Of a DNA stretch of 64,000 nt, positions 13,574 to 62,682 are shown one piece after another; position 1 is the stretch's first letter, and each line of letters opens with the position of its first letter. The stretch is taken from IMG/VR virus record IMGVR_UViG_3300013936_000013, positions 77,246-141,245 of that record, one strand, 5' to 3'. The translations under genes and the position numbers were made by a program. This stretch comes from a virus (Duplodnaviria; Heunggongvirae; Uroviricota; Caudoviricetes). Below the pieces are notes generated by a model. The model was not told the origin of the DNA, did not search any database, and saw only the letters and a list, made by a program, of their open reading frames with translations.

Positions 13574-14645
13574 CTCGTATAGCTCCAATATTTCTATTGG
13601 TACTGACTATATTTTAATAACTTGAAAGTTATTATATCTCTTTCGGTTTTCATAGGCTTCGTTTCCTAAAACCTAGCTACATACTAATAGTAACCCTACT
13701 CCCCAGCATTTCAACCTAAGGGATAGTCGATACAGGCTTCATTATTTTATATATGTCCATGTCTCTCTTTTACAAACTCTTCTAATAGAATTTTTATTTA
13801 CAAATGGAAAATCTTTACTGATAGAACCAACTTTTTCTCCATTATCATATCTTTTTCTAATGGCTTTAACATCATTTTCAGTAAGTTTTGCTTTGTTATT
13901 GTTTTCTCCTCTATTGGCTATTGAGGAATATTCTTGTCTACTAATTTCATTTGTAGGTATTATAAACTCTTTTCCTATGTGAGGAAAACTTTTTCCTAAC
14001 CATATTTTTTCAAAAGTACCAAAAGATTTATCTGAATAATCTTGATAAACATCAATTTTTCTTTCTCCTGCAAATCTTCTTTTTCTAATTTCTAAAACTT
14101 CTTCGTTAGAAAAAACTGAATTTGGATTGTCCTCTCCTAATAAGGCTTCTCCGCCAGGAGTTAGATTATATCCAATACTCTTCTCATTTGAATGAAATTT
14201 ACTTATCCAATACTATTCTCTTTCAGATAACAAGGAAGGGTCTTCTACGTATTCTAAAATTTCTATTTCTTCAAATCTTCTATACTTTTGAATAGCTAAA
14301 TCACAAGGCGTATTATAATGATTTTTTAAACGATTTGTGTTATTATGTTCATACATTCTTCGTTTTATATCATTACTTAAACCTATATAAATTTTTCCAT
14401 TTGGAAAATTAAGTTTATAAATACCTGAGACGCCATTTTTTAATTCTTTTATTTTCATATTCATGTTTCATGTCTATCCTTTCTGACATGATACATATAT
14501 TTCATAATGATTCCCACGGTATTTTCATATCATCATAACATCATGTCATAATAACTTAAAATTCACCGTTAGCATATTATTTTATACTGTCCAAAATAAT
14601 ATACCCCGCTAGTAAACGGAAAAGATATATTAGCCCAAACACTTC
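13574..14645 (-). mobile_element. group I intron (1072 nt) interrupting recJ-like gene, carrying a GIY-YIG homing endonuclease ORF
   Basis: 5' exon ends in U (GGCCU) able to pair with intron IGS GGGCU; intron ends in G; P/Q-like elements (GCUAACGGUG...UACCGUGGGAAUC) in 5' part and R/S-like elements (CGACUAUCC ... AAAAUAUAGUCAG) in 3' part; paralogous to intron at 29084..30177. Confidence 0.65.
13742..14464 (-). CDS. GIY-YIG homing endonuclease with NUMOD-like C-terminal repeats (intron-encoded); 1 in-frame TAG
   Basis: GIYKLNFPNGKIYIGLSNDIKRRMYEH; C-terminal GENNNKAKLTENDVKAIRKRY / GEDNPNSVFSNEEVLEIRKRR repeats; ORF 14213..14464 ends in TAG and frame continues to TAA ~13742. Confidence 0.75.
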
Positions 14646-15292
14646 AGGCCTAGCGCTACAAGGTCGATATAACTATCTGCGTAATGTTGATGAATCATTT
14701 TATCAAAATATCGACAAAACTGCCAAGCAACTCCAACACCAGACAATTCTTTATTTGGATAATTACTTAATTGATTATTAATTACGATAGCATCTGTGCT
14801 AATCTTATCTGCAAGATGATGGTCTAAAATAAGCGTTTGTCCACCATATTCTTTAATAATCTGATGCTCTTTAAAATCATTAGAAGAAGAATCAGGACAG
14901 ATAACTAAATCAAATTTATTCTATTTAATATAATTGATACAATCATTTAACCCATGCTGCTTGCCATCATGCAAATAAACACTTAAACTATTAGAGACCC
15001 AAGAAGGAAAAACATCATAAAGATAATTTACAATAAGAGCACCTGAAGTATAGCCGTCACAGTCACAGTCAACTACAACTAATACAGTTCCATTTTTGTT
15101 TACAGTTTGAAGAATTGCGGCAAGTCCAGCTTTAAGATTCTCTTCCCCTAAGCCTTCAGGCGGATTAATGCAGCTGTCATCCGCATTAATATAGTTTTCT
15201 AAGTCGCTCATTTTAAGTCCTCTATTGACTAAAACCTGTTCAAGTGGGCTTAAACTAGGACTCATATATTCATTAATTAAAGTATATTTCAT
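14646..15292 (-). CDS. recJ: RecJ-like ssDNA exonuclease, exon 1 (DHH domain); 1 in-frame TAG
   Basis: DHH motifs VVVDCDCDGYTSGALI and LILDHH; reads through TAG at 14921; in-frame stop only after proposed 5' splice site. Confidence 0.65.
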
Positions 15293-21704: not shown

Positions 21705-22643
21705 TTAGCTTCCTCCTTTGGTGCTATTCATACCATAAATATTGCTTTGATATAATTCAATCCACAATTTTTCTTTTTCATTTAACTAATCTCTTGGGCA
21801 TTCTTCAAGAACCTCAAAGGTAAAATTCCAAATACCATCTTGTTGCATTGAAGTATAAAGTTTGTTAGATGCTGAAGCCCCAATGCCGCAACCGCACTTA
21901 CAATGTTGTTTAAAACGTTCTCCAATAGAAACACTCTAACCAATGTAACACTGTTGCGTTTTTAAATTAGTAATTTTATAAATACCAGTTTTATCAGTTT
22001 TACCTACAATTCTAGTACTCATTTCAGATACTTTCTTTTGTAAGTATTCAGACCAAATAAGTTTATTTAAAACTGTAACATTCCTAAAGCTGCTTCTTAA
22101 ATTGAATAGTAAGTTAATATCATTTAATTCATTTTCGCTCAAGGTAATTTTATAGAAGTCAAGTTTCTTTTTCTTTTCTTCTTCTCTTAACTACGCTTCA
22201 ACGCCTGCGGCGAGTGATGCTCTAATCTTACTTAAATCTAATTCAGCTTGTTTCTTTTGGACTTGTAAATTCAAGATATATTTATCAAAATCAGATTCCT
22301 TTTTAGAATACTCATTATCAAGAGTCTCCATATAAAAATGTGCGGCATCCTCTGCTGTGCGCTTATAGTCTAAGGCTTTTTTCGCTTCAGCCTCAGCTTC
22401 TTTCTTCTAATTAGCTAAAACCGCATATTCATTGCCGAGACTATCTAATTCTACCGTTAAATCAAGAATTGAATCATGTAATCTCTATTCTTCTGAAGTG
22501 TCTAGCTCTTGTTTCTTTTTTAATTCTTCCTATAAAGAATTTATCTTATCACATTGCTAGTTATGCTAATAAACTAAATAAATAATAATTCCTGAAAGAA
22601 ATAATAAGCTAAATACAACGAGACAAATAATAAATACTTCCAT
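21705..22643 (-). CDS. free-standing GIY-YIG endonuclease fused in-frame to N-terminal TM/coiled-coil region; ~10 in-frame TAG
   Basis: GIYKITNLKTQQCYIG[TAG]SVSIGERFKQH and LNEKEKLWIELYQSNIYGMN motifs; ATG 22643 to TAA 21705 is open apart from TAG codons; region shows no long ORF under the standard code. Confidence 0.6.
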
Positions 22644-25316: not shown

Positions 25317-27686
25317 TTAAAGTTTTACAATATAATTAACTTCACTCTTAGTCATAATATTACCTAAGCTAGTTCTTACTAATTCAGGAATGTCAGTAGA
25401 AGAAATACAAATTGAATTAGGCTTACCAATCAATAGAATATTATCTTCCTTAGAAACCATTGCGGCTCCAACTAACTCTCCCGTAGAAGCAACTGCTTTA
25501 TAGCAAACTACGCCTTTTCCCGCACGACCCTGATATGGGAACTCACTTAATGCAGTTTTCTTTGCATAACCTTTTGAAGTAAAGAATGCGATATAATCAT
25601 TCTCATTATGGATTGGCAATCCAATCAAAACCTCATCATCGTCATCTAGTTTAATAGTTTTTACGCCTGCGGTGACTCTGCCAATAGGATTGATAGAAAC
25701 TGTGTCAAAATGGATACTCATACCTTTTCGAGTAATAACCACAATCTCTTCATCTTCAAGGAAAGTTACATTAGCAATAGAATCGCCATCGTTTAATTTA
25801 ATCGCCTGAATGCCAGTACTCTTCTTTACTTTCATATATTCAGAAAGCTCAGTTTTTTTTAATAGACCTTTCTTAGTAAAGAACACAACATACTTTGCTG
25901 TTGACTGACGATAAAGAGAAGTCATTGCAATAACTTTTTCATCATCATCCATAGTGATTAGAGAACTAATTCTTGAACCCTTAACTGTATTAGTTCCAAC
26001 AGGCACATTATCTACAAGCAGTCGATACATCTTACCCTTATTAGTAAAGAACATCAAAGTATCAACTGTATTCGTAGAAATGGTATCAAGAATTGCATCA
26101 TCCAAAGTTTTTACGCCCTTGCCATTTCGCTTTTGAACTTTAAAGCTCTTAGTAGGAACTCGCTTAATGTCTCCATTTTGAGTAAGCACAACAACAACGT
26201 CTTCAGGAGTTACTGTTGCAATCTCTTTCTCTTCAGGAGCAACATTAATTTGAGTAAGTTCTGTGCGACGAGCATCACCATATTTAGTCATTAATGCTGT
26301 TAATTTATTTTTAAGAACGATTTTTTGCTCATCTTCACTGTTAATTAAAACAGTCAAATTTTTAACAGATTCATCCAATTCAGCTTTTTCATTTTGTAGC
26401 TCAATTTTTTCCAAGCCAGCCAATTTACCAAGCTTCATATCAACAATAGCTTTAGCCTGATTAATAGTAAAACCATGGATTGAAGTTAAATTAGACACAG
26501 CATCCGCAGAACTCTTAGACTTTTTGATTAGAGCAATGATATTATCAATATCTTCAAGAGCTTTCAAAAGACCATCAACAATCTCTAATCGAGCTTTTGC
26601 TTTGTTAATATCAAATTCTGCTTCTCTCTTGATACACTCAAGATTATGTTTAATGTAAATCTTAATACAATCTACTAAGCCCAACTCAACAGGAGATTTA
26701 TCCACAAGAGCTACCTGATTGTAAGAAATTGAAGTCTGCAAATCAGTCTTTGCAAAAAGTTTTTTTACAACCGCATCAGGATTAGCATCCTTTTGGCATT
26801 CAATAACAATGCGGATTCCCTTTTTGTTACTTTCATCTCGAATCTCAGAAATACCTTCAACCTCTTTAGAGTCACAAACTTCTCCAATTTCAGTCATAAG
26901 GCCTTCAAGAGTCAACCCATAAGGAATCTCATAAAAGATAATTTTCTGCTTCTCAATGGTATATTTGCCACGAACTTTTACACTACCATGACCTGTTTTC
27001 ATAATTACGGGAATGTCATTTTTATTGATAATAATACCACCCGTAGGGAAATCAGGACCAGGTAAGACTGGTTCTTTTCCATCCATGTAATCAATAATTG
27101 CGGTTCCGACCTCGTTCAAATTGTGCGGGAGCCAGCTACAAGCCATCGCCACGCCGATACCTGTATTAGGATTACACAACAGATTAGGAAAGACAGAAGG
27201 CAAAGTTACAGGCTCTTCATCATTTTCGTCATAGTTAGGAATAAAATCAACAATCTTTTTCTTTAGACCATTGAGCATTCCATCTTCAGAAATCTTTGCC
27301 AATCTTGCATTAGTATAACGATAAGCTGCAGGTCCATCACCACCAATATTACCCATATTACCATGGAAATCAATCAGCGGATAACGCATTACCCAAGGCT
27401 GAGAAAGATGAACAAGAGCGCCATAAATTGAACTGTCACCATGCGGATGCCAATTGCCCATAACATCACCAACAATTTTTGCACATTTTGCGTACTCTTT
27501 ATTTGAAGCATAACCGCCGTCATAAGCGCCCCAAAGAATGCGGCGAGCGACAGGTTTAAGTCCGCTTCGAGCATCAGGTATACTTCTGTCCAAATTTACA
27601 GCTGCCGCATATTCAATAAAATTTTTACTTAATTCATATTGAAGGTCATTAATTTGATATTTATCTTTTAATTCAATATTATTCAA
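25317..27686 (-). CDS. type II DNA topoisomerase subunit A (GyrA/ParC-like; T4 gp52-like); TTG start
   Basis: ARSGLKPVARRILWGAYDG (GyrA N-terminal motif), 789 aa. Confidence 0.8.
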   Translation of the reverse strand: MNNIELKDKYQINDLQYELSKNFIEYAAAVNLDRSIPDARSGLKPVARRILWGAYDGGYASNKEYAKCAKIVGDVMGNWHPHGDSSIYGALVHLSQPWVMRYPLIDFHGNMGNIGGDGPAAYRYTNARLAKISEDGMLNGLKKKIVDFIPNYDENDEEPVTLPSVFPNLLCNPNTGIGVAMACSWLPHNLNEVGTAIIDYMDGKEPVLPGPDFPTGGIIINKNDIPVIMKTGHGSVKVRGKYTIEKQKIIFYEIPYGLTLEGLMTEIGEVCDSKEVEGISEIRDESNKKGIRIVIECQKDANPDAVVKKLFAKTDLQTSISYNQVALVDKSPVELGLVDCIKIYIKHNLECIKREAEFDINKAKARLEIVDGLLKALEDIDNIIALIKKSKSSADAVSNLTSIHGFTINQAKAIVDMKLGKLAGLEKIELQNEKAELDESVKNLTVLINSEDEQKIVLKNKLTALMTKYGDARRTELTQINVAPEEKEIATVTPEDVVVVLTQNGDIKRVPTKSFKVQKRNGKGVKTLDDAILDTISTNTVDTLMFFTNKGKMYRLLVDNVPVGTNTVKGSRISSLITMDDDEKVIAMTSLYRQSTAKYVVFFTKKGLLKKTELSEYMKVKKSTGIQAIKLNDGDSIANVTFLEDEEIVVITRKGMSIHFDTVSINPIGRVTAGVKTIKLDDDDEVLIGLPIHNENDYIAFFTSKGYAKKTALSEFPYQGRAGKGVVCYKAVASTGELVGAAMVSKEDNILLIGKPNSICISSTDIPELVRTSLGNIMTKSEVNYIVKL

Positions 27687-28578
27687 TTAAATATTCATCT
27701 CCTAACAACATTTCTAATGTAATCTAATCTCTTTCCCAATAAGGAATTCGTACTAATGGTATATTATTTTCTCTACAATATTGATTTTTAATTTTATCAT
27801 TCTTCTAAATAGATTCTAAATCATAGGTAAAAAAATTCTATTCTTTAAAATGTTGTATCCCATCAAATTCAATCAATCTAATTAATTTTTCCTTTTGATA
27901 AATACCAAAATCATATCTTAAAGGTTTAATATTTTTTAACTCTTTAAAAGTAACTTGCTTTTTATATTCAATATGATTAATTTTTAATATATTTTCAATA
28001 TTAATTTCACCAATAGAAGTTGATATGCATCCACAAGACTACACAGTTCCGTCTTTCAAATGAGAACTGGAAACTTCATGCTATTTTCCACAATCACATT
28101 GACAAACCCAATACATATGAGAACCATCTTTCATTGAGGTTGGATACATTGCAATTAATTTACCAAATCTTTGTCCTTTTAAATTTTCAAAAGTTTTATG
28201 ATAAGGACAATTCACTTTACCACAACTATTAACAGAACCTCCATTTAAATTATTTGAAGTTACTTCATGTTCATTTCCGCAATCACATTTACATTCCCAA
28301 ATAATACTTCTATGAAGTCGTTTTCCAGTATCTTTTATTACAGTTAAATGTCCAAATCGCCTTCCGACTAAACGAGTACTTAATTCAACTTCCTTCTTAG
28401 GAGGAATTAATTTTTTATCAATAATTACTTGATAATCTGGATTAGGCCAACTTCCTGTTTTAGTTACAATATATCCTTTATCTCGCATAGCTTTCTAAGT
28501 TCTACCAAAGCTAGTTTTTAAAGTAGAAAGACTATAACCATACTATTTACTAAATTCTTCTTTAGTCATATTAGTCAT
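27679..28578 (-). CDS. putative nuclease: tandem Cys-rich zinc-ribbon repeats + C-terminal PD-(D/E)XK (Vsr/DUF559-like) domain; 4 in-frame TAG
   Basis: Two repeats of W.C.CDCG.EHEV.S..L..G.V.SCG; C-terminus YDFGIYQKEKLIRLIEFDGIQHF...NIPLVRIPYWE resembles the Vsr-like endonuclease fold; GGAG RBS + ATG 28578; sits between topo II A and B genes. Confidence 0.5.
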
Positions 28579-28683: not shown

Positions 28684-29083
28684 TTAAATGCCATAAGTTG
28701 CCTCCTGTGAATGCTGTTTAATAAATTCCTTACGAGGTGCGATTGCAGTGCCCATTAAGTCATCGAATAAAGTATCTGCAGCTATTGCATCCTCGACAGT
28801 AATCTGCCGAATATTGCGAAGCTCTGGATTAACAAGAACATCGGTCTCATCTACATCCATTTCACCGAGTCCCTTAAGGTGTTTCACGACATACTTTTTA
28901 CCAATATTCTTAGTTCGATACTCTTCTAAAGCTGCATCATCTTTTAGATAAATAAATTTATCTTTGCCTTCAGTTACTTTATATAGTGGGGGGACACCTG
29001 CATATACATATCCATCTTTGATAAGCTGCGGACAGAACGTCCAGATAAAAGTATAAAACAAGTTCTTGATATGCGCGCCATCA
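28684..29083 (-). CDS. type II topoisomerase subunit B (GyrB-like), exon 2 (C-terminal Toprim tail)
   Basis: DGAHIKNLFYTFIWTFCPQLIKDGYVYAGVPPLYKV aligns with GyrB [36 protein letters not shown]; C-terminus ...LMGTAIAPRKEFI matches GyrB end. Confidence 0.75.
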
Positions 29084-30177
29084 CGTGTCACTCCTATGTT
29101 TCCATAGGCACTGACTAACTTTTACTCTCTTAGAGAGGAAACCATTTCGGTATTTCATTAGCTTCGTTTCCTAAAACTAAACTGCGTATCAATAGCAGCC
29201 CTACTTCCCTGCCCAGAAGACTTAGGGAATAGTCGATACAGGTTCAAATATTTATCCATTTCTTTTCTTTTTTCTTATAAATAGGAAGATTTTTATAACT
29301 TCTCCCCCAAAGCATTGCTTGAAATGCTTGATATGAAATTCTACTCTTATAGTCTTCATAGATTTGCCGAGCATTTTCATTTACATATCTTTGTCTAATG
29401 GCAATAACTTCTTCATTGGTGAAAACTGCCGAAGCTCCATTTTCGCCACAACTGTTTTGATAAATATAATATTTTTTATTTTCTTCTGTAAACACTTCTG
29501 GCATTATATGTGCCCAAGATTTTCCTTGCCACACAGCTTGAAAAGTTCCAAAAGAAACTATATCTTTATATTTCTCATAAACATCTTTTTGCTTCAAATG
29601 ATTGTTATATGCTTTTCTTATTTCAATAACATCTTGTTCTGTCAGTTTTGAACGTCCATTATTTTCACCAATGGATTGCTGATCTCCGCCTTCAGAGCAA
29701 TTATATCCTTTCTCAATAGAATTATAATATCGAATCCAATAAGATTCTCTTTCATTCAATTTTTCTATTGAACACTCTTCAATTACTTCATAAGTAAAAG
29801 CATCTTTTCCATACTTTTTTATTGCTACGTCAACAGGAATTCGACTAGACTCTCCTTTTGTCTAATGTTCTTTAAAACGACGCTCACAATCATTTGATTG
29901 CCCAATATAACATTTGCCATTTTCTTTTTTTGTAATTTTATAAATTCCTACCATTTTTATTCTCCTTCATTCTATAAAAATTTTATTTGAAAGAGAATGG
30001 ATAAATATTAGTTTCCCACGGGATTCCCATGCCTTTCAGTTTAGGGTTCCCCGTTAGCAAAATTCTTTTTCTCTTTCATATTTATGTGAGAACCGTATGG
30101 GTCACATAAATATGTCCTGTCCAAAAAAATTTTACCCGCTTGATCAAGCGTAAAGTTTTTCATACGCCGAATAGTTG
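29084..30177 (-). mobile_element. group I intron (1094 nt) in topo II subunit B gene, carrying GIY-YIG homing endonuclease ORF
   Basis: 5' exon ends ...GACGU, intron ends ...GACACG, exon 2 starts UGAUGGC; join gives DADVDG Toprim motif; P/Q elements (UGCUAACGGGGAACC...GGAAUCCCGUGGG) and R/S elements (CGACUAUUCC...AAAGUUAGUCAG); exon-1 frame hits TGA 45 nt into the intron. Confidence 0.75.
29244..29954 (-). CDS. GIY-YIG homing endonuclease with NUMOD-like repeats (intron-encoded); 1 in-frame TAG
   Basis: GGAGAAT RBS + ATG 29954; MVGIYKITKKENGKCYIGQSNDCERRFKEH[TAG]TKGE...; C-terminal repeats GENNGRSKLTEQDVIEIRKAY and GENGASAVFTNEEVIAIRQRY. Confidence 0.75.
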
Positions 30178-31685
30178 ACGTCTGCATCACTCTCAATAAT
30201 GATCTTGCCATAACGAAGATCTTCAGGTCGGTAAGTAAGTTTCATAGTTTTCATGTCTACTGAAAGACCAAATGCTTCAATCATTGTCATAATTTCTGCA
30301 TTCTTTTGAATCTTATCAAGACTTGCCTTACGAACATTAAGAATCTTTCCTCGAACTGGCATAATTGCTTGATAGGCATTGTCTCTTGCCATTTTGAGGT
30401 TGCCCGATGCCGAATCGCCCTCGGTCACATAAATCTCACACCTAGACCGATCCTTCCCATTGCAATCCGCCAATTTACTATCAAACTTAAGAACCTTTTC
30501 TTTCTTTTTCTTCTGATTCTCACGAACTGCTTCTCTAGCTTTCTTCGCTGCATCTCTAGCTTTACGCGCATTAATCGCCTTATCCGCAATTACCTTGATT
30601 TCTTTCTCATTATTATTCAACCAATACTGAATATGCTCAGTTAAAACAGAAGTAAAAGGAGTCATATCAATCTTAACGATTCGACTCTTGGTCTGAGCAT
30701 CATAAGAAATATTCGGTGCAGTAATATTAAATACAATTAACATACCTTCCTGAATATCATCGCCGCTCAGATTTTCGTCCTTCTCTTTTAGCCACTTCTT
30801 ATCTCGGAAGAATTTATTAAACTCACGAGTAATAAGAGTCTTAATTTGGGTGATATGCGGACCGCTATCAGTCTCACCAGTATTAACATAAGAAACCATA
30901 TTCAAAGCATACTTATCGGTATAAGTAAGAATAAAATCTAATTTATTACGACCCTGCTCGTACTGAATCTTAAGTCTATTGCTCAGAATTTCATTATCTT
31001 TTGCAATATCTGTAACCAAATCATTCAGACCATCTTTCGATACAAAAGAGATAGTATCTTTTCCATCATGGGATAAGTTTATTGTTAGACCTGGACATAG
31101 ACATACAAGAACCTTAAACAGTTCTTTAATTCGATTAACTTCAATTCCTGCATTAGTGAAAAATTCTTCACTGGGAAGCCAATGAACAATAGTACCAGTA
31201 TGATTAGAACCCTGCTCTCCTGTCTTTCGAGAATCAAAAACACCTTCCTTAAAGGATACTGACTCCATTTTACCATCTCGATAGGTAGAAACTTCCAGCC
31301 AATGAGAAAGATAATTTGTCAGCTTACTACCAATACCATTCAAGCCAAGCGCAGTACCTTCATAAACACCATCATCAGTAAACTTACCAGAAGTATTTAA
31401 GACATCAAAAGATGCCTGAAGAACAGTTTCCCCATCTTCACGCATTACATTAACTGGAAATCCCTGTGCAAAATCTTCAACTGTACATTCACCAGAATCC
31501 TTATAATCAACATTAATTACATTGCCATGACCTGCGGAAAATTCATCAATAGCATTAGAAACAATCTCAATCAAAAGCTGAGTACTATATTCAGTACTAC
31601 CACAATAAACTCCCGGACGAAGTCTTGTAAACTCTAATGGGCTAAGCGAAGCAATAGAATCTTCTGTATATAACTTATCGCTCAT
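30178..31685 (-). CDS. type II topoisomerase subunit B (GyrB-like), exon 1 (GHKL ATPase + transducer + start of Toprim)
   Basis: 513-aa ORF with GHKL ATPase N-terminus; ends ...YGKIIIESDADV at proposed splice site. Confidence 0.75.
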
Positions 31686-31710: not shown

Positions 31711-31735
31711 TATATATATTATATCATATTTTTAA
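31711..31735 (-). promoter_or_regulatory. conserved extended -10 promoter (TGATATAATATATA)
   Basis: Plus tatatatattatatcatattttt upstream of topo B start. Confidence 0.5.
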
Positions 31736-32251
31736 TTGTACGTCAATATTTAATTTTAAAGATAAGTCTATATTGTTTGCTAAAATAATCTCTTCAAATT
31801 TTGCTGAATTATGTGTTGCAAGAGCATCCGCAAGTTCATTACCAATTAAATCTTTATGTCCTCTACATTTATTAACTTGACACATAAAAAAATCTGTGCT
31901 AAGATATTTATATAAGGCTTTTACATAATTGATATTTTCTACTTCTTTCTTTTTACTATTTTTCCAATTATTTCTTACCCATGTATAAATCCAATTATTA
32001 CAAATATTTACACAATAGGCAGAATCAGAATAAATAATACAAGGCTCATTTGGATGATATTTAGTAGCATATTCAAAAGCATAAAGAATTGCTCTTAATT
32101 CCATTTGATTATTAGTAACGTGTTTAAACTACTCTTGGTAACAGTGAATAATCGCGGTTTCCTTAGCTCCATCGCATTGATAAACCACAATTCCAAAGCC
32201 TCCAAGACCTGGATTCCCGCGGCTGCTTCCATCTGTATAAATATGAATCAT
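31724..32251 (-). CDS. rnhA: ribonuclease H; 1 in-frame TAG
   Basis: AGGAGG RBS + ATG 32251; MIHIYTDGSSRGNPGLGGFGIV then TAG, then TNNQMELRAILYA...; ORF track only shows the portion after the TAG. Confidence 0.75.
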
Positions 32252-32705: not shown

Positions 32706-33353
32706 TTATAAAGTCAACCAAGTTTTTTCTCCAACAATGCCATCTGCGGTTAAACCGTGGTTCTTCTACCAAGCTATAACTGCGGCTTCAGTTGTAGCTC
32801 CAAATATACCATCTGGATTTTTAATACCTAAATGACGCTATAAAACAGTAACTGCATAGCTCGTAGTACCTCCATCCCGCATACCTTTTTTTAAAGTTGG
32901 CATTAGTTCTGGAGTTGAAATGTATGTAGTGCCTACCTTACTAATCCATCTACTCTTGTAGGTTCGTACATCAACATGAACAAAGCCCGCATAGATACCA
33001 GTGCTTCTATCATATAAACCAATACCGCCACGATTCTTAAAAAAAGGCAATGATTTAATATAAAGAGCAAGCTATAAAGGTTCTACTCCTTCAATTCTAA
33101 TATCTGCGGCGGTTCCTTTGCAATGCTAACTCTATGAACTACCACCAATACTCTTGTTATATGCTACTGTTCTATATGCACTATTGATTAAAATAGGCTT
33201 TTTATAATGGTCACGAATAGTCTAAAGAACTTGAACTAATTCATTATCAATTAAAATTTCATCCGCACCATTTTTACATCTAAATTCTTTTACTGTAAAA
33301 TTAATTGATAGCTTTAAATTTCCCTAAGTTTTATATGAATATTTACTTACCAC
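32706..33353 (-). CDS. endolysin: peptidase M15 + C-terminal peptidoglycan-binding domain; 8 in-frame TAG
   Basis: Zinc-site motifs S.HCKGTAADI and GGIGLYDRSTGIYAGFVHVDVR; C-terminal ...DGIFGATTEAAVIAW[TAG]KNHGLTADGIVGEKTWLTL matches PG_binding_1 with TAG at the conserved Gln; start codon uncertain (GTG 33353 or TTG 33383). Confidence 0.7.
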
Positions 33354-33591
33354 AAGGATCTCTTCTTTCTAATTCAGACTCAATGTTATTTAAAACATTG
33401 GTTAAAATATCCTTAAAAGATTTTAGTGGAAAAATAAAACGTAGCCAACTAGCATTTTGAGTTACTAGATTATAAACATATTGCAAATCAGTTGCATTGC
33501 TTTTGAGATAAAGCAACATTCCCTAAGTAACAATTTTCATTAGATGAATGTTACCATGAGAAAGTTCTTCAAGTAATACTTTTTCATCCAT
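33343..33591 (-). CDS. hypothetical small protein (82 aa); 1 in-frame TAG
   Basis: AAAAGGAGAG RBS + ATG 33591. Confidence 0.4.
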
Positions 33592-50214: not shown

Positions 50215-53200
50215 TTATTTCTTGCCAACAAAAATTGCAAAAGCGCAAGGGAAGTAAGAGTAAGCTGGATAGTTACTATTCCATTTACCTTCGCTATTGA
50301 CTGCACCGAAGCCATTAGGATAACTAATGAACTCTTGATTATCTTCATCTACATACTCAATATATGTAGAAGCTAACCAATAGTGCTAATTATCTATATT
50401 AACAGCTTCTTCTGGACGTCTACGAACTCTTGAAGGATCGTCAGTAAAGACTGCAAAAGTAGAACCTTCTTGAGCGTAGATTGGATATCTATCAACATCC
50501 ATTGCAATCTTAGAAATTTCTGCATTATTTGGAATCCAAACTTTATCCATATCAGTAATGAATGTAGAAGTATTATTCATTTTAATTGTAGTTCCAGTAT
50601 TACTGTTACTCCAATAATCATTAAAGAACTTTTCTTCATCAGACTCTGCGGCTAAGCTAGTTCCGCCAGTTACCTGAATTTCAGCGTAGTTACCAACTGA
50701 GCTCTTACGAGATTTAGGACTGATAACTGCCTGAACTAAACCAGGCAATAGATTATAAATATCATTATTAGCAATATCTCTTAGCTCACTGTACCACCAA
50801 CCGCCATTATTCCAAGATTCTCCTTTTAAGAAAGTATTGATTCTAACAGTTGCTCCTTTAACAACAGGGATTGTTAATGTTGCATCTTCAGTTAGCTCAG
50901 TAAAGCCTGCGGCGTTCCATACTGCGTCGCCATTATTCTTAGTCAAAGTAACTCCAGAAGATAGCTTAGATTGAGTTAAATCATAAACAACAGAAGTCTC
51001 ATCTGGAGAGGTAACTGTAATCTTTGTAAGTAATGGACGACCTAATCTATCTACATTATTAAAAGTTGGAGCAATAGTTACAGAAGTAATATCTTCAGTA
51101 TGCTCATATACGAAATTATCACTATCAGCATCAATATTACCAATTTTATAGCAATATGCTTTTCTTTCTTGACTATTCATTTGATATGCTTTCAAAGATA
51201 GCATATTAGTCAATAGAGTGATACCAGAAGCAGACATATCGGTTAGAACCAGCTGTTCTGTTTGTTTTACACCACGCTCATCAGGATTTAAAGTAACACT
51301 CTTACCCTAACCGAGCTTCCAACCATAGTCTGAATAACTCTTCGTACCTGCGGTGACCGTGTTAACTACCGCTTGGATCTAACCCCAAGAGCAATCAGAG
51401 AACTCCATGGGCTCTGCACTAGGTAGTTCAATCTTAGAAGCAACTGCAAAGCAGTAGATGGTACCATCAACCGCATTAACGCTTAGAGACTCCATATTAT
51501 CCAAAGAAGCAAAGTTTTCAGGGAACTTAAAGGTATCTGTTCTCCAACCAGGCACTCTGACTATTGTCCATCCACCTTTTAGCCACTTGCTCAAATCTTC
51601 ACCCTTTAACGGGTCTTCAACTGTGCTCATATTTACATTAGCTCCATATGCTATTGCAGTAGAAGGATTACCAGAAGCATCTTCTTCAGTACCTGTAATA
51701 GAGAAGTATGGAGTTGCAGAATTTAGATTTTTAACAGCTGTATCATAATCCTGTTTAAAGAAATAAATGTTATAGTGACGTAGCTTAGGTGTATAAGTTG
51801 CAGTTAAAGTGCGGTCTTCAGTTACTTTTAGATAACTACCGTTCCAAGAGCTATAATAATAATTGTACTGAGCATCTGTTGGTTTAGTAGGAGTATCAAT
51901 TACCACATAATCTAATCCACCAAAATTATTTGGGTCATATGCTGTTCCATCTGCATTATAACCATTAAAGTTGATTGGATTATAGCCATCTTCTCCACCA
52001 ATAATTTGATAAGAACATAAAGTAGTTCCATCATAATTCTTAAATGTTACGGTATATAGATGACGACCATATAGAATACTAATATTAGGCATATAGCGTT
52101 TATAAGCTGCCATCGCCGCATCTTCAATTTGAGCAACATCAATAGTACCAGAAATGTATGGATTAGTGTTACCATTATAAATGATACCAGCTTCATCCAA
52201 TCCTTTACAGCTTAAAAGTTGGTTAAATACTTCTTCACCATTGCCATCAAGATGCCATTGAATATCAATTAATCTCAAAGTCTAAAGGTTCTTAGCTTGT
52301 TTGATAATATTTACCAATAGCTAGTCTGCAGATGGATCACATTCCTCAACTGTAATAGTTGAAAGACTATCATAACCTTGCAAGGTTAATACGCTCAAAT
52401 GCGATAGATTCTATAATTTAATATTAGTAATTGTTTTAGGCAATTTTAAAATCTCAATATTGCTATTAGCTGCAAGAGTGACAGAAGGAATATTAGTATT
52501 CTCTGCATAGAAGTATCTTAATGCAATACAGCTATTTAGTCCAATAGTAGTGTTTAAATAGGTTAAACCAGTTAGAACAATCTTCTTTAATAGATTACTA
52601 TTAAAGGAAATGTTAGTACCGTTAGCCCAAGCATTATTTTCATAACCTTCAACTTCGCTACCTAATAGAACTTCTTGCAATTTCTTAGCTTGAGAAATAT
52701 CCAACCAACTTAAATACGCGGGAGCCAGGTCTCCTAAGCTAGTAATCAGAGATGCATTGTAGACATAAGTCTCAACACCGCCAGAACCAGTTGAAGTAAA
52801 GTCAGGAGCTTTAACTGTTGTAGGAACTCCTCGCTTAGCTTTTGTTCTAATATAATCACCATTGCCATATTTTACTAAGATATACATATCAGAGTAAGGA
52901 GTAATAGTTAAATCTTGGTTAGGTGCAACAACTTTATTTTCAGTAGGCTTAGTGATACGCATCTGAATAGCATCGCCTACTGCGGTTGGACCTTCATACT
53001 TAGAACTCATATAGCGGTCTTGATAGAATAAGAACCAGTCACGTTGTAGTTGCTTATTTCCTAGCATCATAGAAATATAAGTTCTATCATTATCATTTAA
53101 GTATGGATTGATATATTTCTTAAACATATCTTCAATCCAAATAGCTTCACACCAGTTAGCTTGATAATCAGAGAATTTTTTACTTAAACGAAATGCGTTA

Positions 53201-56200
53201 AATGCACCTTCATTTTCTTTCTCTTGAACCATTTTCTTGATATCATCAGCAAAGCATTGTTCTAGATTAATCCATAGAACTGAGTCTTCGCCACCATATG
53301 CTTCACTACCATCGCGATATTCAATACCATAACTATGGCTTAAACGACCAATGTTATCAATACCGAGAGCAGTATCATTATCGTAGTCATATTTAAAGTG
53401 CCAATGTTTACCATCATCAGTTGCCATAAATACGTTTTTAGCACGGTTATCAACCATCAGATGACGTTCAGTAAAGATGTCTAGCCAAATGGCAGAATCT
53501 TTGATAAAATAATCTTCAAATTCAGCTTTAAATTTAGCTAATCTATATTCAGCAGTATCTGCGGTGTAGGTTTTTCCATCATAAACAACAGCCTAAGGTA
53601 GCGTATTACCTGTAGCCGCCGCAGTATCAGTTGAATTAACCCAAGCTACAACTCTATGCAGATTGTCAATATCAGTTTGAGTATAGCCTTTCTTTGGAAA
53701 TCTAAATTCAAATCCTTCTTCCCAAGCATCGTTACTAAAATCTGCAGATTTAAAAGAACAAAGGGCAGATTCATTAGTCAGGAACTCAACGCAGCATTGC
53801 TCAGGATATTTACTTCTATCTTGACCGAAAACATTATAATTAGTTTTATCATTATTCATGTTTGCTTTTGCATAGAAAGTTAATTCAGGGTTAGGGTCTG
53901 CTGTATTTCTATGGAAAATAATGATAGGTTGACCTTCAATGGTGCCACGAATTTTATTGGTAAAACCTTGATTGTGAAGTTCAGTAATTAGCTCATCACG
54001 TTGAGTTGTGCGGTCAGCCTTAGGCTCATAGCCTTTTGCCGCAGCCATTTCAAGCAATTCATCAAGCTGAGGATCAGAGATGTAAGGATCATAAATATTA
54101 TATTCATCTGTCAAAAGAACATTATTTGCCCCTTCAGAAGAAGCAACGTCAACTTTCATACAGAAGTAATCTACACCCAAACTCTTATCAGATATTGCAA
54201 AGGTGGCTTCTTTAGCTCCTGTGTCTGCATGATTAAAACCATCAACTTGGAAATCCATATTTAGGTTTAGAGCTGCTCGACCATAACCCGCAGAAGAAGT
54301 ACCTTGCATACCAATACCAACATTTTTAGAGGTGAAACTCTTTCTGTTGTTATTAGGATCTACATAAGTAACATCGCCACGAACAGGCGGATTGTTTCTA
54401 TCTTTAATTTTAGAAGTAGGGAAAATAAATGGATACTGACTAGAGTCAGAATTAATAATCATATATTTAGACTGTAATTTATCAAGAACAATGTTATGAT
54501 AAGCGTCATATATATTATTTCTCTGATAACGAGCAATAATTTCATCAGATGTTGGAGCATCAAGAATAAAATTATTTAAGACTTCATATTGGTCAAGAAC
54601 TTTATTGTAAGTCTTAATTAAATAAACATCTAAGTCACATTCAGAAGAACCTAGAGTAATACTAACAGGATTAGTCTGAATGAATAAGTCGTCATTCTCA
54701 TAGATTGCGGCAGAGCAAGGAATACCTTGTAGATACCATAGAATCAAACTCTTTTGAGTTGAAGGATAAACAACTAAATCCATTTCAATATAAGAATCTT
54801 CCTTATAAGGAACTTCCATTTCAATATCACGAGAATTAAAGACACCGCGGTTGGCAAATAATCTTAAACCAACATTACTTGATTCATCAAAACAATTAAT
54901 AATTTCAGTATCATAGTTAATACTATTTCTGCACTTAAAAATCATTTTAATTGCTTTACCACTATTTTTAAAGTCCTATCCAAATAGTTTTAGTGGAATA
55001 GTAACTTTATCATTACTTGCCTTAATTCTTAGGACTGTTGCTCCATCTTCATCAGACTACCAGCCACCATTAACCCAGTCAAAGCTAGTTGGGAACTCAG
55101 TAGAATAGCCATTAGAAGTCCAAGAATTATAATTAGACTGCGCATTACTTCTACCAACAGCAGAAAAGTTTGCTTCAAGACTATTTGTAATAGGTTTAGC
55201 ATCAATTTCAAGTGCATTGACCTTCAATTCAATAGTTCTAGATTGAGTACCACATCTAATAATTAAGCGGCGGGCGTAGGTATTAGTAAACTTTAAGGTC
55301 CAGTGTTGTAAAGTTCGATCTGGATTAATAGCAATTGAACTAGCTCTTACCCATTCACCTGCACCATCATTAGCGTCAGTATTAAAATACCATTCTTCAA
55401 GTGAACACTGTCTATTATTGTTATTATTAGCTGTACTGTAATTTGGATCCCAGATTAAATAAGGGATAGAAACATTATCATATTCAGTAACCTCGGTCTA
55501 AGCAAAAGAAGAAGCAATAATAGGAGTTCCATTACCGCGACTAACAAAGATAATTTCATAATATAGTTCATTACTAATTAACTCTGCGCCATTTAAATTT
55601 GCGGTGACCCAGACTTTTAAAGGATATGCGCCATGTCCTTTGAAAGGAATATCCTGAGTTGAAATGCCACCAGAAGTAGAACTGATAATATCTTTAGACC
55701 AAATGACAGTTTTATTAGTTCCTGCGGAATACAATTCAAAGTGTACTGTCTTTTCAAAGCTACCGCCCGCAGTTACAGTATAGGTGAAAACCGCATTATC
55801 ATAGTATGCTTGATAGGCGTTAAAAGTAGAAGTCAGTTCTAGAGATACTGTTGTAATAGTCCATCTTAAACTTCTTACATTACCAGCATTATCAGTTAAA
55901 ATAACCTGAACTGAGTTACTACCACGAATTAGAGAATCAGTAATATCATAAGAATAATAACCTTGAGTTACATTAGTATTCTAATCTACTTTAACTCCAT
56001 TAACATTGATAACAATAGAACCATTGCCTGTTGATGCTCCATCGTCACTATATACAGAAGACCAGTTAAAACCAATATAAGTTTTTTCTTCACCTTTGTA
56101 AATAGTAGTCATGCTTGACGGAATCTCTGGGTCGTAGGTCATTTTGAAAGTAATACCATTACCGCCAGAACCGCCACCTGTACCTTCAATAGTAATAGTA

Positions 56201-56793
56201 CCTAGGGGAACCGCATCACCTTTTTTATACCATGAAAGCTCATGTGTAGTATTATCAAATTCAATATCTAAGTCTTCAAGAGCATTTAGATTTGCTACTG
56301 TTTCTTTTAATGCGGCGAGGTCATCGGCGGAAGCATAGTTAGGTAAAATACCATTAACTTCATCCTTAGTATAATAACCAGATAAGTCGGTCGCAATGGA
56401 TACACCACCAGTAATTCTTTCACCATTGCTTAGTAGATAGAATTTACTATCATCATCAATTTCATAGCCATCTGCTTTCTTTTGGGTGTTCTAATCTAAA
56501 GTATCTAGATAATCTAGAATTAGACTCAGCTGAGTTCTAACTGCAGTACCCGCAGATGTATATTTTTCGCCATTAAATTTATCAAATTTTTCATTAGTTA
56601 AGCCTTGACGAATATCCTCTAGTTCAGTTTGGCGATTATTACTTGAAAAAGTAGGATATTTAGTTAAAAGATTGTCAACTCTATCATTCAGAGTCTTCAT
56701 TGAATCTGACAGATTTCCGCCAGTCTCACCGACATATTCTTTGTTTGCTTCTGCTAGTAGGCGCAAGGCTTCTACAATAGATATTTTACTCAT
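50215..56793 (-). CDS. giant 2192-aa structural/adhesin-like protein (Ig-like and LRR-like regions; probable tail fibre or host-recognition protein); 12 in-frame TAG
   Basis: ORFs 56491.., 55498.., 53593.., 52411.., 51379.., 50386.. all share one frame; every gap between them was translated by hand and holds only TAG codons, no TAA/TGA; TAA in-frame just upstream of ATG 56793; stop TAA 50215. Confidence 0.7.
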
Positions 56794-62418: not shown

Positions 62419-62517
62419 ATGGTTGGGGATGAGAGACTCGAACTCTCACACCATCCGTCAGAGGGATGGGCTCTGGTGGTTTTAGAGACCACTGCTTTAA
62501 CCGTTAAGCAAATCCCC
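62419..62517 (-). tRNA. amber-suppressor tRNA (anticodon CUA), tRNA-Gln-like acceptor, ~96 nt (99 with encoded CCA), with 28-nt extra region
   Basis: Acceptor TGGGGAT/ATCCCCA (U1-A72, as in tRNA-Gln), D-arm GCTT-AACGGTTA-AAGC, anticodon stem GTGGT/ACCAC, loop CTCTAAA (U33, CUA, A37), then 28-nt insertion containing hairpin CCATCC-CTCTGAC-GGATGG (Gln CUG-type loop), T-arm GAGAG-TTCGAGT-CTCTC, A73, CCA. Confidence 0.7.
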
Positions 62518-62682
62518 ATTATCTTTATTTCTCTTAGATTGCTTTGCGTTATATCGCTTAGCCGCCTTGCAATTTGAACATCCATGTTTATTTTTGCAAT
62601 AACAAAGACAATAATCTTCTAACCAAAAATGGTATGGAATTGAAGGTTTAATTTTACGACGAGGAATCTTTTTACCTTTCAT
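62497..62682 (-). CDS. hypothetical basic Zn-ribbon protein (61 aa), overlaps 5' end of suppressor tRNA by ~20 nt
   Basis: Intact ORF with CxxC...CxxC; reality uncertain because of tRNA overlap. Confidence 0.25.
   Translation of the reverse strand: MKGKKIPRRKIKPSIPYHFWLEDYCLCYCKNKHGCSNCKAAKRYNAKQSKRNKDNGDLLNG

Follow-up and report, generated by a model that had tools for sequence, protein, structure and literature searches.

Evidence for a mobile, td-like group I intron at the DxDxDG motif of a phage topoisomerase II B-subunit gene

How can a phage make a whole topoisomerase II B subunit from a gene that is broken inside the codons for its DxDxDG metal-binding motif? The question is raised by a 64,000-nt stretch of DNA from a gut phage of the Caudoviricetes (hereafter the window; positions 77,246 to 141,245 of the IMG/VR record IMGVR_UViG_3300013936_000013), in which a GyrB-like gene on the minus strand is interrupted by 1,094 nt at 29084..30177. 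An initial annotation, made from the sequence alone, described the insert as a group I intron carrying a GIY-YIG homing endonuclease, and our analysis supports that description through the boundaries of the insert, the covariation of its core helices and the identity of its open reading frame (ORF). We consider it very probable that 29084..30177 is a mobile, td-like group I intron of the IA2 type. All features given below lie on the minus strand, and coordinates are those of the window unless another contig is named.

Restoration of the B-subunit reading frame

Exon 1 (30178..31685) opens at 31685 with a GyrB-like N-terminal region and specifies residues 1-502 together with two bases of Val503. 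In the sequence and in the ORF list it reads ...GKIIIESDADV, with gac gu as its last bases. Exon 2 (28684..29083; 133 codons including the stop) supplies the third base of Val503, beginning u gau ggc, and continues as DGAHIKNLF...; between 29083 and the stop at 28684, its translation is (V)DGAHIKNLFYTFIW...PPLYK.... Direct reading of the sequence thus bears out the two exon ends first proposed, ...ESDADV and u gau ggc. Beyond the boundary, the exon 1 frame runs on for ten further codons to a TGA (30146..30144) that ends 34 nt into the insert, a distance originally given as 45 nt. Joining 30178 to 29083 produces gac guu gau ggc, the codons for DADVDG (predicted ligated-exon sequence ...GCAGACGU joined to UGAUGGCGCG), and an open frame to the stop at 28684. 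As anticipated, the joined product is GyrB-like, with matches to the Pfam families DNA_gyraseB, Toprim and DNA_gyraseB_C; it has 635 residues and not 636, which is the number of codons with the stop.

Database searches with the in silico spliced protein return dozens of contiguous 635-aa proteins that are 98-100% identical over 100% of the length. The 513-aa product of exon 1 forms a database cluster of its own with 125 sequences, and a search for close annotated relatives of the host gene among phages gave a best match of no more than 38% amino-acid identity. Gene callers break this essential gene into three entries, the 513-aa fragment, an endonuclease and a short C-terminal remainder; recognition of the intron restores a single 635-aa subunit.

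A contiguous protein is encoded by L123, a contig of 139.6 kb with about 92% nucleotide identity to the window. Its uninterrupted gene is collinear with the exons, following the window to 30177 and again from 29082, and is without exactly the 1,094-base segment. The junction in L123 is GAT GTC GAT GGC (sequence GATGTCGATGGC; intron-less site of the L123 type, GAGAGCGATGCTGATGTCGATGGCGCG). Over 1,908 exon bases, L123 and the window differ at 129 nucleotides and only 3 amino acids, which places the exons under strong purifying selection. The insert is missing from L125, L126 and L127 as well, and L128 carries it with identical boundaries. Since some relatives are without the insert and another has it at the same positions, the intron is polymorphic within a phage population whose closely related members are about 135-140 kb in size. 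With its spliced product matched by contiguous proteins from other contigs, and with exactly the insert missing in one relative, the interruption itself is confirmed as real, far beyond chance.

The boundaries are fixed not only by the intron-less relative but also by similarity to another phage intron. In blastn searches against annotated phages, the last 160 nt of the insert are 78% identical to Enterococcus phage EF1 (MF001358), where the counterpart DNA separates parts of an interrupted DNA polymerase gene; phage VRE9_3 and Lak megaphages gave weaker matches. The similarity to the EF1 and Lak introns ceases exactly at the predicted terminal G29084.

Intron-bearing and intron-less alleles also differ near the insertion site. 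Four synonymous differences (coding-sequence positions 1497, 1503, 1506 and 1509) fall within 13 nt of it in a comparison of window 30166..30181 with L123 7497..7509, where the gene-wide divergence of 6.8% between the two would predict about 0.9 differences in those 13 nt. This cluster could be a co-conversion tract or could reflect cleavage-resistance variation.

The ribozyme and its three insertion sites

A conserved 21-mer of the core occurs in more than 119 viral contigs, and 12 of these have a homologous intron in the same GyrB-like gene, at the same motif, in one of three sites within 12 nt. Seven introns share the site of the window (site A: L077, L024, L033, L092, L035, L023 and L084; offset 0), where exon 1 ends GAC GU. 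Site B, at +7 nt, is used by L031, L014 and L016, with exon 1 ending GAY GGU, and site C, at -5 nt, by L096 and L012, with exon 1 ending GAU GCU. The internal guide is matched to its own exon at each site: GGCGU with ACGU^C at site A (^ marks the splice site), GCCG with CGGU at site B, or GCCA with UGGU in exons with GAU in place of GAC, and UUGGC with GCU^AA at site C. At all three, the last base of the exon is a U held in a U·G wobble and the last base of the intron is a G. Such retuning of the guide to the exon is a requirement of group I chemistry, and plain insertion gives no reason for it.

To derive a common fold we aligned 13 introns, from the window and the 12 other loci, after removing the ORF from each by means of anchor motifs; automatic excision by pairwise alignment had given inconsistent cut points. 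RNAalifold, unaided, recovered P1, P4, P5, P6/P6a, P7, P7.1, P7.2, P8, P9 and two peripheral hairpins, with compensatory changes in 34 of 82 pairs. A hand-refined structure of 96 pairs has 92.3% of its cells paired, against 39.6-46.8% in slid controls in which the 3' partners were shifted by 1-3 columns. In this structure 39 pairs are altered on both sides, and none of 500 shuffles reached any of five measures. The ORF-less RNA folds with z-scores of -5.5 (L092) and -5.7 (window, ORF deleted) relative to shuffles.

In the window, the intron runs from C30177 to G29084. P1 (30164..30181) pairs exon ACGU and intron C (30181..30177) with the guide GGCGU (30168..30164), and places the U30178·G30168 wobble at the 5' splice site. 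The P1 put forward before, between exon ACGU and intron GCGU, is therefore present, with five base pairs (ACGU^C with GGCGU) and not four. A 5' exon ending in U and an intron ending in G had likewise been noted, correctly, and the U·G pair and the terminal G are kept in all 13 homologues. Between the P3 5' strand and P4 lie two peripheral elements (30057..30150) whose helices show compensatory changes: one is the hairpin CGCUU/AAGCG (30150..30137), and in the other, a helix of 30135..30127 with 30065..30057 closes off a long hairpin. P4 (ACGGGG/UCCCGU, 30054..30049 with 30023..30018) is invariant and P5 (CCC/GGG, 30046..30044 with 30028..30026) covaries. P6 (GGG/CCU, 30017..30015 with 29242..29240) and P6a (30009..29998 with 29258..29247) belong to a region, 29240..30017, in which the endonuclease ORF occupies the P6a loop. 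This placement of the ORF follows from L092, whose ORF-less intron of 347 nt at site A joins the P6a strands by an 8-nt loop.

The 3' part of the catalytic core (29113..29234) contains P7, P7.1, P7.2, an optional hairpin, the P3 3' strand, P8 and the joining segment J8/7. P7 (GACUA/UAGUC, 29234..29230 with 29117..29113) is invariant in the topoisomerase set and changes to GGUCA/UGACC in Lak-B1; the initial annotation had located these P7 strands, and the P4 strands (given as ACGGGGA/UCCCGU), where we find them. P7.1 (29229..29224 with 29210..29205) covaries in four of six pairs and is followed by AGUAGGG; P7.2 (29198..29195 with 29185..29182) covaries in two of four. These extra helices between P7 and the P3 3' strand are a hallmark of subgroup IA2, which includes the Twort intron along with td. 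P8 (29137..29133 with 29129..29125), after which J8/7 follows, covaries too, and P3 and P7 cross in a pseudoknot as expected for a group I core. The P9 hairpin (CCUAUG GAAA CAUAGG, 29108..29093), with covariation in four of six pairs, leads into a 3' tail that finishes in the terminal G29084, the two together spanning 29084..29108.

The optional hairpin (29180..29158, then CCGAAAU) lies between P7.2 and the P3 3' strand, and combines a covarying stem with a strictly conserved 15-nt loop, UUUUAGGAAACGAAG. It is seen in the window, L024, L033, L016, EF1 (L001) and Lak-B1 (L003), and is cleanly missing in other family members, which suggests a tertiary-contact module. A GGAAAC/GUUUCC pairing was considered as a general feature and rejected, as EF1 and Lak retain the GGAAAC loop without a partner.

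The position of P3 is the least conventional part of the fold. Its 3' strand, GGUNU, just 5' of P8, pairs with ANACU directly after P1 and not with sequence beside P4; in the window these strands are GGUUU (29143..29139) and AAACU (30154..30158). The N/N' pair (columns 36/374) is GC in seven introns, AU in four, CG in one and UA in one. The same placement, with unrelated sequences, occurs in EF1 (AAUGGUU/AGCCAUU), in Lak-B1 (UGUGCU/AGUGCA) and in a second intron of the window described below (AUAUCU/AGAUAU). The covarying peripheral hairpin and second helix separate the P3 5' strand from the UAA that precedes P4. We regard this arrangement as likely. An alternative P3 beside P4, AUUUUG/CGAAAU, was discarded: its 5' strand varies freely while CGAAAU is invariant, and that 5' strand covaries with an upstream partner. 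A crude scan for P3 partners in 77 family members, most of which fell 35-130 nt upstream of P4 and few adjacent to it, was noisy and is not used as evidence, and a literature search on 'P3.1' in group I introns was uninformative.

A recoded endonuclease and neighbouring insertions

The ORF in the P6a loop (29244..29954, 236 aa) starts at an ATG at 29954 with its own Shine-Dalgarno (SD) sequence, GGAG (29965..29962), 7 nt upstream, and stops at a TGA (29246..29244); its final codons (..KKEKKWINI) double as the P6a 3' strand. The predicted protein matches Pfam GIY-YIG (PF01541) at 6e-10 (39.7 bits against a cut-off of 22.6), the catalytic domain of I-TevI (PDB 1MK0) at E=5.6e-9 with the GIY, YIG, Arg, His, Glu and Asn residues aligned, and PHROG 7168, 'homing endonuclease', at 3e-32. 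The first description, of an ORF between P4 and P7 that encodes a GIY-YIG homing endonuclease and has a ribosome-binding site to itself, is thereby substantiated. Orthologous endonucleases in related introns have 234-240 aa, and most copies keep the ORF intact.

An in-frame TAG at codon 31 (29864..29862), which the initial annotation did not mention, falls where related endonucleases have Q or K. The genome of the window reads TAG as Gln. Many of its long ORFs are open only with read-through of TAG, such as one of 2,192 codons with 12 TAGs and one for RNase H with a single TAG (examples at 50215..56793, 32706..33383, 21705..22643 and 31724..32251), and at three positions a TAG of one genome has CAA (Gln) as its counterpart in a relative with 92% identity. 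TAGs are densest in the 2,192-codon ORF, a PG-binding (lysis-type) gene and genes that resemble endonucleases, and are absent from the topoisomerase exons. At 62420..62518 the window encodes a suppressor tRNA (Rfam tRNA, 55.5 bits) whose CUA anticodon reads UAG; it lies directly upstream of tRNA-Gln(CUG) and tRNA-Gln(UUG). Its anticodon loop is CU-CUA-AA and its acceptor stem (UGGGGAU..) is Gln-like, as in tRNA-Gln, and its variable arm, CCAUCC-CUCUGAC-GGAUGG, is unusually long for a Gln type; ARAGORN mis-parses it as '???' with anticodon 'taaa'. This tRNA is presumably needed for translating the endonuclease past codon 31.

Borges et al. (bioRxiv 10.1101/2021.08.26.457843) describe in Agate phages an intron endonuclease that is carried in a standard-code early gene and itself has recoded stops, and put forward that recoding delays its production until late infection. 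The window has the same pattern of a standard-code early gene with a recoded endonuclease, with TAG read as Gln where Agate phages read TGA as Trp. The TAG at codon 31 may delay the window endonuclease in a similar way, and the locus adds a second case, of TAG type, in which translation of an intron endonuclease relies on the recoding of a stop codon.

Other insertions are found in the window and in related phages. A second intron of the same family, at about 13577..14647, splits a DHH/RecJ-like gene, whose exon 1 ORF (14630..15292) matches Pfam DHH at 9e-14. It carries a GIY-YIG ORF (13742..14464) with one in-frame TAG, and its core motifs, the guide pairing GGCCU^ with GGGCU and the terminal ...ACG^ are visible. 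Between exon 2 of the B subunit and the A-subunit gene is a free-standing ORF of 299 aa (27679..28578) with seven in-frame TAGs and matches to PHROG 'HNH / homing / intron-encoded nuclease' families (1e-36 to 5e-21). The segment of about 1 kb that holds it is missing in L123, L126 and L128, where the two subunit genes overlap. In L125 and L127 (6424..7661), the A-subunit gene is split into 181 + 609 aa by an insert of about 1.2 kb that encodes a GIY-YIG protein and is probably another intron; the matching window position, about 27152..27166, is uninterrupted. Given the B-subunit intron, the segment with the 299-aa nuclease ORF and the A-subunit insert of L125 and L127, the topoisomerase operon of this phage group has therefore received at least three independent endonuclease-associated insertions, in differing combinations.

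Alternative explanations and known systems

Several observations weigh against a functional IA2 intron. The Rfam model RF00028 had no match in the window at its gathering score, nor at E<=10 on 28900..30400, and searches of the window and of this segment gave only chance matches (U4, mir-14). The ORF-less intron of L092 aligned over its full length with only 24.2 bits (E=4e-4). The canonical IA2 order P1-P2-P3-J3/4-P4 is not found in the window intron, and the P3 placement draws on one varying pair within the topoisomerase set and on three other lineages. By eye, P10 (guide with the 3' exon) is weak or absent. The standard code would truncate the endonuclease at codon 31, and splicing is what we infer from sequence.

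The initial annotation had suggested an Infernal search with RF00028 as a check, counting the lack of a group I core against the intron; the model indeed reports no core in the window, but it does recognize the relative L092. The ORF-bearing td intron of T4 type, included as a control (its sequence was checked as exact), scored 42.5 bits against a gathering score of 50. As this control also falls under the threshold and L092 is found at E=4e-4, the miss in the window is uninformative, the control showing RF00028 to be a test of low power where phage IA2 introns carry an ORF. At the gathering score, the sole match in six family loci was an unrelated intron in L020. The P3 placement probably contributes to the poor score. 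A standard Rfam model thus misses an intron family found in more than 100 viral contigs, and a family-specific model would improve phage annotation.

The miss by RF00028 in the window, together with splicing that is deduced, would also fit a former group I intron that no longer splices, in a B-subunit gene that is now a pseudogene or encodes a dispensable enzyme; T4 topoisomerase mutants are viable according to the literature. Against such decay stand the strong purifying selection on the exons seen in the comparison with L123, core helices that keep their pairing through compensatory changes, an endonuclease ORF that is intact in most copies, and the commonness of intron-bearing alleles, and we judge it very unlikely. 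Slightly less credible still is a gene in pieces, in which insertion of an endonuclease has left two parts of the subunit to be translated separately and to reassemble as proteins, in the manner of T4 gp39/gp60 or Aeh1 NrdA. T4 and its relatives do tolerate a split of the same enzyme in the Toprim domain, and exon 2 has a possible GTG start at 29091, but an AGGA abuts this GTG with zero spacer, conserved terminal extensions of the T4 type are missing, and the break would part D-x-D from D-G of the metal site. A free-standing insertion would, moreover, have no need of a complete, covarying ribozyme core with exon-matched guides.

The window is probably a metagenomic assembly, and a chimera could in principle create a false insertion; the recurrence of the same boundaries in independent assemblies (L128, and seven IMG/VR contigs at the same site) makes this barely plausible. 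Removal of the insert at the protein level, as an intein, has next to no probability. Inteins also favour conserved motifs of replication proteins, as described in PMC4760082, but here the exon 1 frame meets a TGA that ends 34 nt into the insert, the ORF uses a separate frame and has an SD to itself, its Pfam search finds GIY-YIG only and no Hint domain, and the same site has an ORF-less version of 347 nt. The argument originally made against an intein from the stop codon and the free-standing ribosome-binding site is in this way extended to its exclusion.

We therefore return to the mobile group I intron. On this interpretation the gene would be transcribed through the intron, and the RNA would fold into P1-P9. 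Free guanosine would attack after U30178, held in the U·G wobble of P1 with the guide GGCGU, and the terminal G29084 would direct ligation of the exons to give the DADVDG codons and the 635-aa protein. Owing to codon 31, production of the endonuclease would have to await activity of the suppressor tRNA(CUA) of the phage. The endonuclease would cleave intron-less alleles of co-infecting relatives near the sequence that encodes DxDxDG, with repair copying the intron in; that some close relatives have the intron and others lack it is indirect evidence for such cleavage.

It is well documented that essential genes of gut phages can harbour group I introns, and the element is of the classic selfish td/I-TevI type: the case is well supported but fairly ordinary, and what is new is the host gene and motif, in an uncultivated phage that recodes TAG. 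Searches of the literature, with incomplete coverage, brought up no report of a group I intron in a phage gene for topoisomerase or gyrase. The topoisomerase II B subunit thus joins the phage replication genes invaded by group I introns. Interest to specialists should be moderate and centre on the three staggered sites, the hot spot in common with T4 gene 60, and a P3 placement that defeats the standard model.

The closest annotated ribozyme relative is the EF1 DNA polymerase intron, which shares its helices and its P3 placement with the window intron and has an endonuclease ORF in the corresponding loop. It differs in its host gene and guide sequence, and is not annotated as an intron, its pieces being called 'hypothetical protein'. 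The EF1 (L001, MF001358) gene for DNA polymerase III alpha is annotated in three pieces with one HNH 'phage intron' noted; it is the second interruption of this gene that is the relative of the window intron, with parts labelled only 'hypothetical protein'.

The td intron with I-TevI is the closest classical counterpart. Both introns are about 1 kb long, interrupt a phage gene of DNA metabolism and have a GIY-YIG ORF in the P6a loop, the N-terminal domain of the window endonuclease matching the I-TevI catalytic domain. Their P4 strands are near-identical (ACGGGGAA / AAUCCCGUG), and the 3' core follows the same order: CGACUAU, P7.1, AGUAGGG, P7.2, UCGAAA, P3', P8 and AUAGUC, after which the window has P9 with its GAAA loop. 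They differ in host gene and in the location of P3, whose strand UCUAUC abuts J3/4 in td, whereas the window P3 5' strand follows P1, two helices before P4. The window intron also has the extra hairpin with the conserved loop UUUUAGGAAACGAAG, and a recoded TAG in its ORF. No similarity to the I-TevI DNA-binding domain was detected in the C-terminal part of the window endonuclease.

T4 gene 60 provides the second comparison. The initial annotation had likened the locus to T4 gp39/gp60, as a split at the RNA level instead of the protein level; the comparison is apt but understated, because the T4 gene 60 gap falls at the same glycine codon of the same motif. The T4 mobA/gene 60 cassette is always located in the Toprim domain of this enzyme, whose large subunit is the T4 counterpart of the B subunit, and splits a key metal-binding site; the 50-nt bypass, which forms the 3' end of the cassette, comes just after D490/G491. 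By BLASTP, the T4 gp60 segment ...IMTDADHDG aligns with ...IIESDADVDG of the window. With the take-off glycine of DADHDG aligned to the G of DADVDG and the 3' end of the cassette mapped, the T4 bypass therefore sits at the glycine codon of site B of the intron family. The DxDxDG motif thus appears as a recurrent target: one intron family occupies three adjacent positions there, and the unrelated mobA/bypass cassette of T4 lies at the same glycine codon.

A wider reading, which we advance tentatively and would put at a little short of an even chance, is that the 12 nt encoding DxDxDG serve as a shared landing pad for unrelated selfish elements. The intron family would have moved among the -5, 0 and +7 positions by retuning its guide, with +7 the codon of the T4 bypass, and would combine a rearranged core order that Rfam misses with an endonuclease gated by a switch of genetic code. 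If this is true, the locus offers a natural setting in which to study the acquisition of new sites by an intron together with its endonuclease.

The two elements meet at the same enzyme and the same DxDxDG target, and both are endonuclease-driven and polymorphic in presence among close relatives, although they have no sequence relationship. The T4-type split involves the HNH endonuclease MobA, conserved terminal extensions on both protein halves and a ribosome hop over 50 nt with matched GGA codons. In the window we find a GIY-YIG and not an HNH endonuclease, an insert with a ribozyme, and no take-off/landing GGA pair around a 50-nt gap; the insert would be removed at the RNA level by the ribozyme, leaving the protein whole. 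One stretch of conserved DNA thus serves two unrelated elements, each driven by an endonuclease; T4 tolerates its element by ribosome hopping and reassembly of the protein, and the phage of the window, by our reading, does so through RNA splicing.

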